Of a stretch of 64,000 nucleotides of DNA, positions 18,237 to 20,258 are shown in pieces. The notes below the pieces were generated by a model. The model was not told where the DNA came from. It saw only the letters and a list, made by a program, of their open reading frames with translations, and ran no database searches. The stretch lies in assembly GCA_016868375.1 (NCBI GenBank), contig VGHA01000004.1, forward strand, positions 10,081 through 74,080. Reading direction: 5' to 3'. Position 1 is the first letter of the stretch. Every line of letters starts with the position of its first letter. The position numbers and the translations under genes are program-made. The stretch is from Betaproteobacteria bacterium (lineage in GTDB: Bacteria; Pseudomonadota; Gammaproteobacteria; Burkholderiales; Burkholderiaceae_E).

Positions 18237-20258
18237 TCAGGCGCGGCTTGAGGGCTCGAACGGCAGGGCGTTGTCGAGCCAGTCATCGGACTTCAAAACG
18301 CCTCGACGACGCGAGAAGGCGTCGGCTTCCGCGCGTCGCTGTGACATTCGGATGAGCGCCCGCACCCACAGCGCGCGAAGCGGCAACCGCAGGCGTGCGG
18401 CTGTCGCAATCAGCGCCCGCGATGGGCGAGACACAAATCGCTTGATGAGGCCGTCCTCGGCGCTTACGAAAATCGATACGCTGCCGGGATCGCCCTGACG
18501 GCCGCATCGCCCGGCCAGCTGCCGATCGATACGTCCCGATTCATTGGCTTCGGCGATGATCACGTGCAGCCCACCTGCAGCCGGTACACCATCGCCCAGC
18601 CGAATATCGGTGCCGCGGCCCGCCATGTTGGTGGCGATGGTGATGCGCCCAGGCTCGCCTGCACGCGCGATGATGCGAGCCTCTTCAGCGTGCCTGACCG
18701 CATTGAGCAGCTCAAAGGGCAGACCGCGCGCGCCCAGCAGCGACGCCAGCGTTTCGCTTGACTCGACACTGCGTACGCCCACCAGCACCGGTTGGCCGCG
18801 CTCATGCAGCGAAACGATTTGCGCGACGACCGCCTGCCATTTGCGCCCCGCGGATTCAAACATCCGCGGCGCAGCCGTTCGGGTCAGCCGTGGCCGGTGG
18901 GTGGGAATAGGCACCACGCCCAGCTTGTAGATGCGCCAAAACTCGGCGGCGGCCTCGCGTGCAGTTCCAGTCGTTCCGGCAAGCCGGGGCATGCGCCTGA
19001 AGAATGACTGAAAGCTCATCTGGCCGAGCGATTCATTGGGGTCAGTCACATCGACCCCCTCGCGCGCCTCGATCGCCTGATGCAGGCCCGCGGTGAGCGT
19101 TCGGCCAGGCGTCATCCGCCCGGTGAACTCATCGAGCAGCACCACTTTGCCCTCGTCGACCAGGTACTGGTGGCCGCGCAGGATGAAGTGCCGCACGGTG
19201 AGGGCCTGGCGCAGAAGTTCTTCGCGACGCGGCTCGGCACGCCAGACAAGGCCCAGCTCGGCCGCGCGCGCAGTGAGCGCAGTGCGTGCGCCCTCGCGCA
19301 GCAACACGGTACGCTGGCGGCTGAGCAACTCGTAGTCGCGCCCCTCGACCATCTGATCGGCGATGGTCGCCACCAGCCTCGCTGCATCGGCGAGCCCAAG
19401 ATCGCTTCTTGGTGCCGACAGAATCAGCGGCGTGACAGCCTCATCGACCAGCACATTGTCAGCCTCGTCAACGATCACTGAATAGAGGCCCCGCACCTGG
19501 ATCTGCGGGGCCTGTGTATCAGGAGGCACCGTGCCGAGCCAGCGCCTGAGCGAAAGCCGCTGCGGATCGTGTCCGGCGCGCGCGGCAAGCTGATCGCGAA
19601 GGAAGTCAGCGAGCATCTCTTTTGCAGTGAGGTAGACCACATCGGCGCCGTAGCGCACGATTCGCTCCTCGGGCTTGTCGGTGGACACCACCGAGGCCAC
19701 CGAGACGCCGCATCGCTGGTAAAGCGGCGACATTTCCTGCGCATCACGCGCAGCCAGGTAGTCGTTGGACGTGACCAGATGGCAGGGCTCACCGCTCCAG
19801 GCGGCCAGCACCGCGCCAAGCGACGCCGTGAGCGTTTTTCCTTCGCCTGTGGCCATTTCAGCGAGCCAGCCACGATGAAGCGCGAGCGCACCCATGAACT
19901 GCACCGGATATGGCCGCATGCCAAGCGATCGGTAGGACGCCTCGCCGATTGACGCCAGCGCCTCGATCAGCCTGCCGCCGGCCTCGATCGGGTCCCGTCG
20001 TACCGCTTCGCGAAGCATGATCAGCTGGTCGGCAAACGCGGCGTCATCCAGCACGGAAAATTGCGCGCAGGCCTTCGCCACGCGCGCTGAGGCTCGCCGG
20101 AGTTTGACCGCATGGTGCCCGCGGCGCTTCACCCAGCCGTGTGTGGCGTGCGCAAACGCGTCGGCGCCCTCGGGAAGTTTGGGCGCGAGCGGCAGCGGCG
20201 GCGGCACAAAGCCGGCCGGAACACCGGTGCGGGGCAAGAGTGCGGCAGCGGCATCCAT
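18237..20258 (-). CDS. SecA-like ATPase (NBD1-PPXD-NBD2 motor) lacking most of the C-terminal translocation domains
   Basis: 673-aa ORF with SecA motifs: [11 protein letters not shown] (19833-19856), [70 protein letters not shown] and [32 protein letters not shown]. The protein ends about 70 aa after the last motif. Confidence 0.85.
   Translation of the reverse strand: [673 protein letters not shown]

Follow-up and report, generated by a model that had tools for sequence, protein, structure and literature searches.

This work concerns a short SecA-like protein of 673 residues and the gene cassette that encodes it, in a 64,000-nucleotide stretch of a Betaproteobacteria contig (VGHA01000004.1, assembly GCA_016868375.1), which we call the window and whose positions we use as coordinates. 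The gene (18237..20258, minus strand, ATG start) lies in a tight row of genes for periplasmic adaptors and an outer-membrane channel, beside a giant adhesin-like gene. All of the window features described below are on the minus strand.

The short SecA gene and its cassette

Read along the minus strand, the locus begins with a giant adhesin-like open reading frame (ORF) of more than 12,221 residues (27324..63989), whose N-terminus lies beyond the window. It is followed by a TolC-family outer-membrane factor (OEP, 544 residues, 25526..27160; Pfam and NCBIfam) and by a HlyD/RND-type periplasmic adaptor with an N-terminal signal or anchor (378 residues, 24390..25526; Pfam, NCBIfam and transmembrane (TM) prediction). 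Next comes a second adaptor of 648 residues (22444..24390; Pfam and NCBIfam), here called GAF-HlyD, which joins a cytoplasmic GAF domain, one TM helix and a periplasmic HlyD-type domain. The 723-residue protein M50-HlyD (20262..22433) combines a probably PqqD-like N-terminal domain, an M50 domain of the site-2-protease (S2P) kind and a periplasmic HlyD/MexA-like adaptor with an alpha-hairpin. The short SecA gene stands after it, then a gene for a SapC-family protein (PF07277 by Pfam, 257 residues, 17448..18221) that is conserved in the cassette, and finally a 732-residue ORF. From the OEP gene to the SapC gene, neighbours overlap or lie 3-15 nt apart, with two overlaps and a 10-nt gap among them. 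The gene coordinates also agree with the 3-nt spacing between M50-HlyD and the short SecA gene that was given in an earlier note on this DNA, made from the letters alone. No ABC transporter, SecY or canonical SecA is encoded in the 64-kb window, the rest of which carries ordinary housekeeping genes, and no ABC transporter was found in the cassettes of the related loci examined. A promoter and terminator scan of 14700-18300 was uninformative. The cytoplasmic part of GAF-HlyD is about 380 residues long, with the GAF domain (2.3e-05) before the single TM helix, and it is kept across cassettes; this is an unusual site for a small-ligand sensor.

The earlier note had read the 673-residue protein as a truncated SecA paralogue without wing, two-helix finger or C-terminal tail, and the domain analysis bears this out. 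Pfam detects SecA_DEAD (2.5e-83), SecA_PP_bind (2.5e-18) and P-loop_SecA (2.2e-51), and gives no match to the wing and scaffold domain SecA_SW. Every motor motif quoted in the note was located: the Walker A region at residues 135-145 (19824..19856), the DEAD or Walker B region at residues 263-280 (19419..19472) and, in the second nucleotide-binding domain (NBD2, P-loop_SecA, 18459..18866), a motif at residues 543-552 and an arginine-rich motif at residues 583-593. The segment that it had likened to the preprotein cross-linking domain (PPXD) lies at residues 373-402, and Pfam assigns SecA_PP_bind to residues 296-397 (19068..19373). The catalytic residues are not degenerate. GEGKT 138-142 of the Walker A region, D272/E273 of the DEAD region, TNMAGRGTD 543-551 and R584/R587/Q588/G589 are all invariant in 37 family members.

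The protein ends after one scaffold-like helix, as had been noticed. The motif quoted for this helix is found at residues 639-665, and an AlphaFold model (37 family members in the alignment, mean pLDDT 83.5) terminates in a single long helix of residues 628-664 (18267..18377), which by alignment is the first part of the SecA scaffold helix. Alignments to solved SecA structures stop inside this helix, at residue 650 of the T. maritima protein and residue 603 of the B. subtilis protein. The last residue of the window protein aligns to residue 666 of the 916-residue Neisseria SecA, and thus about 250 C-terminal residues of canonical SecA are absent. Missing with them are the remainder of the scaffold together with the wing, the two-helix finger and the zinc-binding C-terminal tail. 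A Foldseek search with the model returns SecA structures only, with substrate-engaged, SecY-bound SecA at the top (6itc_A, TMq 0.77). An engineered fragment of nearly equal extent, the C-terminally truncated E. coli SecA-N68 (PDB 5k9t), also consists of NBD1, PPXD and NBD2, but the natural short proteins keep one extra helix and conserved terminal motifs of their own. SecA-N68 is artificial, its ATPase is deregulated and it has no translocation activity.

Two of these terminal motifs stand out in the family alignment. An N-terminal motif LPEGxDA...GWxRRR (residues 28-45, with G31 and D33 invariant) is conserved in the short proteins and not in canonical SecA, and a C-terminal motif DDWLxxALPF (residues 655-667, with D658, W660, A664 and L665 invariant) is specific to the family. 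Judged by their conservation, both are candidate docking sites for a membrane partner.

A family apart from canonical SecA and SecA2

The short length is shared by the whole family. The closest 120 clusters at 90% identity have the same three Pfam domains and mostly 616-719 residues, three shorter partial sequences among them. The best 150 clusters at 50% identity, from a HMMER search of 1.84 billion representatives, span 392-721 residues; all but two reach at least 616 residues, and none comes near full SecA length. The short form is characteristic of the family rather than the outcome of a local truncation. A truncation artefact or a split gene is ruled out for the window, where the downstream gene encodes a full-length SapC protein. 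Carriers include cultured Limnohabitans and Azohydromonas, an Opitutales metagenome-assembled genome and plasmids of alphaproteobacterial isolates, and some members are encoded on accessory plasmids of rhizobia.

Relative to canonical SecA from E. coli, B. subtilis and T. maritima, the protein shares the DEAD-type motor, PPXD, NBD2, the clamp and the beginning of the scaffold helix at 37-41% identity, but has neither the remaining scaffold, the wing, the two-helix finger with IRA1 nor the zinc-binding tail; judged by gene context, SecYEG is not its partner. The alignment and phylogeny against SecA families that the note had proposed place the short proteins in a clade of their own. In a neighbour-joining tree of 17 short proteins and four canonical SecAs (Neisseria, Legionella, Bacillus thuringiensis and Nonomuraea), built without the sequences of the 2015 study discussed below, all 100 bootstraps separate the two groups. 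Identity of the window protein to these four is 38-41% (39.6% to the betaproteobacterial Neisseria SecA), and canonical SecAs of different phyla are about 60% identical to each other. The window protein also scores below the cut-offs of the NCBIfam SecA models: TIGR00963 (510.8 against 800), NF009538 (523.7 against 814) and NF006630 (530.6 against 862).

The same holds for all SecA2 models, namely TIGR03714 (455.7 against 930), TIGR04397 (452.1 against 1085), TIGR04221 (384.6 against 725) and NF012136 (367 against 1100), in line with the note's remark that the context is unlike that of SecA2. The mycobacterial SecA2 and the Gram-positive SecA2/SecY2 systems resemble the present case in using a second, non-housekeeping SecA paralogue for special cargo. 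However, SecA2 proteins retain the two-helix finger, are about 760-800 residues long and have either SecY2/Asp genes or no particular genes around them, whereas the short SecA is found with M50-HlyD, further HlyD adaptors and a TolC-like OEP in a Gram-negative host, between betaproteobacterial flanking genes.

It is very improbable that we are looking at a broken or decaying secA copy, or at the only, and hence housekeeping, SecA that the genome has. Canonical SecA is longer by about 250 residues and no other secA lies in the 64-kb window, but a length of roughly 640-700 residues is kept in the best 150 clusters at 50% identity, together with invariant catalytic residues and the family's own C-terminal motif. 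The short proteins form a clade of their own with members on accessory plasmids, and a SecA that lacks the two-helix finger is not known to sustain general secretion. Canonical SecA moreover occurs in the same genomes (Kamneva, Poudel & Ward 2015, PLoS One, PMC4452313).

The short SecA family and its locus were already published in silico in that 2015 study. The authors described "secondary SecA_DEAD domain proteins", with SecA_SW entirely or mostly missing, from Planctomycetes, Verrucomicrobia, Proteobacteria (Betaproteobacteria among them), a single Nitrospirae and a single Chlorobi, and found them to form a clade of their own, sister to actinobacterial SecA2 (PMC4452313). They reported a conserved locus with Peptidase_M50/HlyD, GAF/HlyD and HlyD (HlyD/Biotin_lipoyl) proteins and sometimes an OEP. 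In their proposal the SecA_DEAD protein serves as ATPase in a type-I-like system that has no ABC transporter, and the M50 protein is the candidate for the membrane component (PMC4452313). The window agrees with this description in domain content, neighbours and clade. SecA_DEAD, PPXD and NBD2 are present and SecA_SW is absent (absent or vestigial in the 2015 family), the same M50/HlyD, GAF/HlyD and HlyD neighbours are there with an OEP, and the protein falls in a clade apart from canonical SecA. The hypotheses also coincide in giving an ATPase the place of an ABC transporter and the M50 protein the candidate role in the membrane. The window is a well-preserved betaproteobacterial example of the family described in 2015, and what the earlier note inferred is largely a re-discovery of the published prediction.

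The 2015 study calls the biological role "completely unknown" and mentions neither cargo, SapC, giant genes, the LEPR-XLL motif nor a PqqD-like domain (PMC4452313). What is new here are the sequence-based links to LEPR-XLL giant proteins, to SapC and to a putative PqqD-like leader-binding domain. A search for the term coined in 2015 found one further open-access paper using it, and we found no literature that links LEPR-XLL to the short SecA cassette; a review of tripartite pumps has nothing of relevance on M50 or SecA. Annotation of the family is inconsistent: 'preprotein translocase subunit SecA' is the name in IMG, in UniRef and in part of the NCBI records, and other NCBI records for family members read 'hypothetical protein', 'translocase' or 'DEAD/DEAH box helicase'.

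The M50-HlyD partner and the giant LEPR-XLL proteins

M50-HlyD has a cytoplasmic N-terminal domain and about seven TM helices, with intact HEFGH (21780-21794) and NLNPLLRFDG (21483-21512) motifs. A Foldseek search with its whole model is dominated by the adaptor part, where the periplasmic region matches MexA, AcrA and MacA, including the alpha-hairpin. Residues 24-412 align to the daptide leader-protease model (daptide_HExxH) at 1.1e-57, below the cut-off of that model. A full-length, colinear orthologue from Pseudosulfitobacter (32% identity, E 5e-101) is named 'PqqD family peptide modification chaperone' by PGAP and matches Pfam PqqD (PF05402) at residues 37-101 with 26.8 bits against a threshold of 23.4. 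This region corresponds in the model of the window protein to three strands at 23-56 and three helices at 57-102. The PqqD-like assignment of the window domain rests on this orthologue, because the window protein has no direct match; a profile search of PDB sequences with the window domain gave noise only (L29, E 0.6). PqqD-type domains bind leader peptides of precursors of ribosomally synthesised and post-translationally modified peptides (RiPPs). Such a domain in M50-HlyD fits a role in recognising the LEPR-XLL leader described below.

The order OEP, membrane fusion protein (MFP), GAF-MFP, M50-MFP and SecA-like protein, then SapC, recurs in 24 genome and metagenome loci found with the short SecA, and the same cassette surrounds family members that are just 39-42% identical. 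An independent scan of metagenomes with an alignment of the partner, M50-HlyD, gave 80 loci at 35-99% identity. The SecA-like gene directly follows M50-HlyD in 64 of the 68 metagenomic loci with downstream sequence. This near-constant synteny, which extends to distant members and to isolate plasmids, speaks strongly for a functional pairing of M50-HlyD and the SecA-like protein and strengthens what the note had suggested from the 3-nt spacing.

Some loci carry further genes (handles such as L109 denote individual loci). On the Pseudosulfitobacter and Mesorhizobium plasmids (L109 10457-10798 and L110 9362-9667), a gene for a small DUF3467 protein (PF11950, 1.6e-17) separates the giant gene from the adaptors; its product might stand in as accessory factor or chaperone. 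No SapC gene is annotated in the alphaproteobacterial stretches examined at these two loci. A conserved protein of 311-320 residues with no detected domain lies between SecA-like/SapC and the giant gene in Azohydromonas (L001 12739-13701) and in L025 (12399-13334), and is absent from the window.

Giant genes adjoin the cassette in widely separated hosts. Their products have 13,168 residues in Azohydromonas australica DSM 1124, 23,534 and 14,336 in metagenomes, 12,737 on a plasmid of Pseudosulfitobacter sp. DSM 107133 and 10,518 on a plasmid of Mesorhizobium ciceri R30. The giant ORF of the window, which is presumed to be the intact cargo gene of the locus, encodes Laminin_G_3, four PA14 domains, 16 DUF5649 repeats and a single RTX repeat in mid-protein, with no C-terminal RTX block and no convincing TM helices predicted. 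Its C-terminus (27324-27800, minus strand) consists of about 100 residues of Pro/Ala-rich low complexity, then a short amphipathic segment, IRARLGGVVHGLADRLARWF, and an acidic tail. The giant protein of L026 likewise ends in low complexity rich in P, A, Q and E. The C-termini are otherwise unconserved, and a comparison across loci revealed no conserved C-terminal retention or secretion signal. One could speculate that the Pro/Ala-rich tail tethers the protein through the export duct.

What the giant proteins do share is their N-terminus. The visible ones begin with some 25-30 residues, mostly basic, and then a motif of the type (V/F)ExLE(D/P)RxLLSA(D/E). It takes the form VE(R/K)LEDR(V/I)LLSA(E/D)P in betaproteobacterial proteins, LETFEPRVLLSADL and FEALEPRLLLSADF in those of the two alphaproteobacterial isolate plasmids, and EQLEPRILLS(A/G) in two distant clades. 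The motif is the "LEPR-XLL domain" of NCBIfam (NF012209), which scores 23.5 bits in L025 and 32.5 bits in L028 at a cut-off of 17. It was seen by eye at 13 loci and on the two isolate plasmids. A regular expression for it, run over about 0.45 Mb in six frames, matched only at the N-terminal ends of long ORFs adjoining the cassette. Of the 34 metagenomic loci whose sequence runs on for 3 kb or more past the SecA-like gene, 24 have the motif. The other 10 belong mostly to the most distant clade, in which a large RTX-like ORF with an open N-terminus stands directly upstream of M50-HlyD. The leader contains no hydrophobic core or h-region of the Sec signal type. The earlier note had proposed C-terminal fragments of the giant protein as substrates for an ATPase assay; this would be the wrong end, because the likely recognition signal is the N-terminal LEPR-XLL motif.

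The window itself holds a trace of a second such gene. The 732-residue ORF after SapC (15099..17297, within a remnant at 15099..17399) is homologous to the first 730 or so residues of LEPR-XLL giant proteins at other loci and retains a leader, ...FKRWSPRGRRLAYARSRAQVERLEDRVSLSAEP (...VERLEDRVSLSAEP), in which LLSA is changed to SLSA, giving LEDRVSLSA. A 1-nt deletion lies just after the ATG, ATGGACACGT-TTTTGC against ...GTCTTT(T/C)GC in the relatives L029, L010 and L043, and the DNA resembles that of the nearest intact locus, L029 (more than 2,356 residues), up to about 150 nt past the stop codon and no further. On this sequence comparison the ORF is most readily taken for a decayed remnant, provided that the deletion is no homopolymer error of the assembly. 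A homologue search with it returned five proteins only, from which no size distribution of the cargo can be drawn.

Two other reports connect giant proteins with SecA-like motors. In Chlorobium chlorochromatii, a preprint describes Cag_663 and Cag_665 with N-terminal LEPRxLL motifs, the proteins having 36,806 and 20,647 residues. These giants are flanked by sapC and tolC and co-expressed with a horizontally acquired "secA", Cag_1676; they are said to be without known transport signals, and a Sap-type route with the C-terminus first is proposed (bioRxiv 10.64898/2026.03.19.712371). Cag_1676 may be the Chlorobi carrier of the 2015 study. West-Roberts et al. 2023 (10.1101/2023.11.21.568195) found a SecA motor with PPXD and without wing or scaffold tied to giant proteins of Omnitrophota and Actinobacteria, and proposed that this fused SecA_DEAD/PPXD module exports the giant protein itself. 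There the module sits inside the giant polypeptide beside TM segments, whereas in the window it is a separate 673-residue protein in an M50-HlyD/TolC cassette.

A model for the export of giant proteins

These observations lead us to propose that the cassette is a type-I-like exporter of giant LEPR-XLL proteins, linked to TolC and without an ABC transporter, in which the short SecA is the cytoplasmic ATPase; we put the probability of this reading at roughly 0.55. The cargo would be marked by its N-terminal leader, the 25-30 basic residues and the (V/F)ExLE(D/P)RxLLSA(D/E) motif, rather than by a Sec signal peptide. The polytopic M50-HlyD would bind this leader through its cytoplasmic PqqD-like domain, a fold of the RiPP-recognition-element kind, and its HExxH / NxxPxxxxDG site would probably cleave it. 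The short SecA would grip the unfolded chain in the clamp of PPXD and NBD2 and use ATP to feed it N-terminus first, possibly co-translationally, while docked on the cytoplasmic parts of M50-HlyD, GAF-HlyD or both, a contact that would replace that of the two-helix finger with SecY. The adaptors M50-HlyD, GAF-HlyD and HlyD, together with the TolC-like OEP, would then take the chain through the periplasm and the outer membrane, with the GAF domain as a possible gate. We infer each of these steps, as well as the direction of transport, the cleavage of the leader and the component that forms the inner-membrane path, from protein anatomy and gene context. The conservation of the motor and clamp and the closeness of the model to substrate-engaged SecA speak for the proposal, as do the Chlorobium LEPRxLL giants beside sapC and tolC. 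The 2015 study had arrived on its own at the same notion of an ATPase and a pore (PMC4452313).

The proposed exporter can be compared with two kinds of known systems. Type I secretion (HlyBD-TolC, LapBCE for giant adhesins, SapCDEF of C. fetus) likewise combines one or more adaptors with a TolC-family channel, includes a SapC-family gene and handles very large, repetitive, adhesin-like cargo without Sec signal. However, the cassette has no ABC transporter, and of its three distinct adaptors one is joined to an M50 protease and another to a GAF domain; the motif of its cargo is N-terminal and there is no C-terminal signal of the RTX type. The processing and export of RiPPs and bacteriocins (PqqD elements, the daptide M50 protease, peptidase-containing ABC exporters) are similar in that a leader-binding domain and a leader protease are joined to an export apparatus, but the presumed cargo of the cassette has 10,000-23,000 residues instead of being a peptide, and a SecA-like motor takes the place of the ABC domain.

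The likeness to RiPP systems raises the question whether the giant genes are neighbours for other reasons, and whether the SecA-like ATPase is an unfoldase or chaperone that feeds the PqqD-M50 protease, either for the export of small RiPP-like peptides or for a GAF-controlled proteolysis signal. The PqqD-M50 part is homologous to the leader proteases of daptides and of the YydH/LiaK type, the GAF domain suggests control by a ligand, and the loci that contain only the M50-HlyD and SecA-like pair adjoin RND pump genes with no giant gene near. But giant LEPR-XLL genes adjoin the cassette in alphaproteobacterial, betaproteobacterial and unclassified clades whose SecA-like proteins are 39-45% identical, no conserved small precursor ORF was seen, and the conserved leader motif of 12-14 residues sits on the giant proteins themselves. 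We regard this explanation as improbable. One candidate for a small peptide substrate, a 76-residue gene call in L003, was rejected, as it is part of a longer ORF.

The main rival to an exporter in which SecA has left SecY is an accessory SecA with the housekeeping SecYEG as its channel, in the manner of SecA2. M50-HlyD would then be a leader peptidase only, and the adaptors and TolC would serve a second step over the outer membrane. Motor, PPXD and clamp are fully SecA-like, SecY-bound SecA gives the closest superposition on the model, a piece of the scaffold helix is retained and the cassette encodes no obvious protein-conducting channel. Mycobacterial SecA2 also has no wing domain and still works via SecYEG. 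Against this, the two-helix finger and most of the scaffold, the parts that insert into or contact SecY in solved complexes, are missing, the leader is without the hydrophobic h-region that Sec signals typically have, and the tight, almost invariable gene linkage is to M50-HlyD and to no SecY-like gene. We therefore consider the SecYEG route unlikely, though less so than a role in peptide processing.

Several observations also weigh against the ABC-less exporter that we favour. The isolated N-terminal domain of the window's M50-HlyD gives no PqqD match in Pfam. The window's intact giant gene runs past the window edge at its N-terminal end, so that the sole leader visible there is that of the decayed gene, and NF012209 gave no match to the leader of this remnant. 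The giant ORFs of the most distant clade stand upstream of M50-HlyD, and their N-termini were not recovered. No M50/S2P fold is known as a conductor of proteins, which is a weak point of the model at the inner membrane. Gene content is not uniform either. In four loci (L058 Ga0172372_10093195, L045, L084 and L085) M50-HlyD is followed by SapC with no SecA-like gene between, and in some others (L003, L044 and L049) the M50-HlyD and SecA-like pair stands alone, with neither adaptors nor an OEP or a giant gene inside 10 kb. The function of every family member is moreover a prediction made in silico, and in exponential-phase Methylobacterium extorquens AM1 the M50, SecA_DEAD and HlyD genes are barely expressed (PMC4452313).

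The four junctions without SecA could stem from rearrangement, strain-level loss or mis-assembly. The M50-HlyD of L058 is 92% identical to that of the window, and the order in L085 is M50-HlyD, SapC, TolC, GAF-HlyD, SecA-like. In the loci with the pair alone the proteins are 58-62% identical to those of the window, and the L003 pair adjoins RND (ACR_tran) pump genes.

An export route for bacterial proteins of 10,000-35,000 residues, and a function for the conserved N-terminal LEPR-XLL motif that many of them carry, are what the model would supply. A role in secretion has been predicted for the short SecA family since 2015, with no cargo until the link between cassette and LEPR-XLL proposed here. 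Together, the cassette and the motif turn an orphan prediction into a specific model, one that lends itself to genetic work in the cultured carriers Methylobacterium extorquens AM1, Mesorhizobium ciceri R30, Pseudosulfitobacter DSM 107133, Azohydromonas australica DSM 1124 and Limnohabitans. The names under which the family is annotated should be made consistent.

A stronger version of the proposal, which we hold tentatively and at a little under even odds, is that the short SecA, PqqD-M50-HlyD, GAF-HlyD, HlyD and the TolC-like channel make up a distinct and still unnumbered secretion system. Its cargo would be the LEPR-XLL giants (up to at least 23,534 residues), with the motif as targeting and cleavage leader, export N-terminus first and the SecA motor moved from SecYEG to a tripartite duct. 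If true, such a system could export proteins while they are still being translated, and this would account for the way in which cells handle proteins that need tens of minutes to be synthesised. It would define a SecA-powered tripartite secretion system without an ABC transporter. It would also mean that a SecA motor works without the two-helix finger and without SecY, which would bear on the debate about how SecA moves polypeptides.

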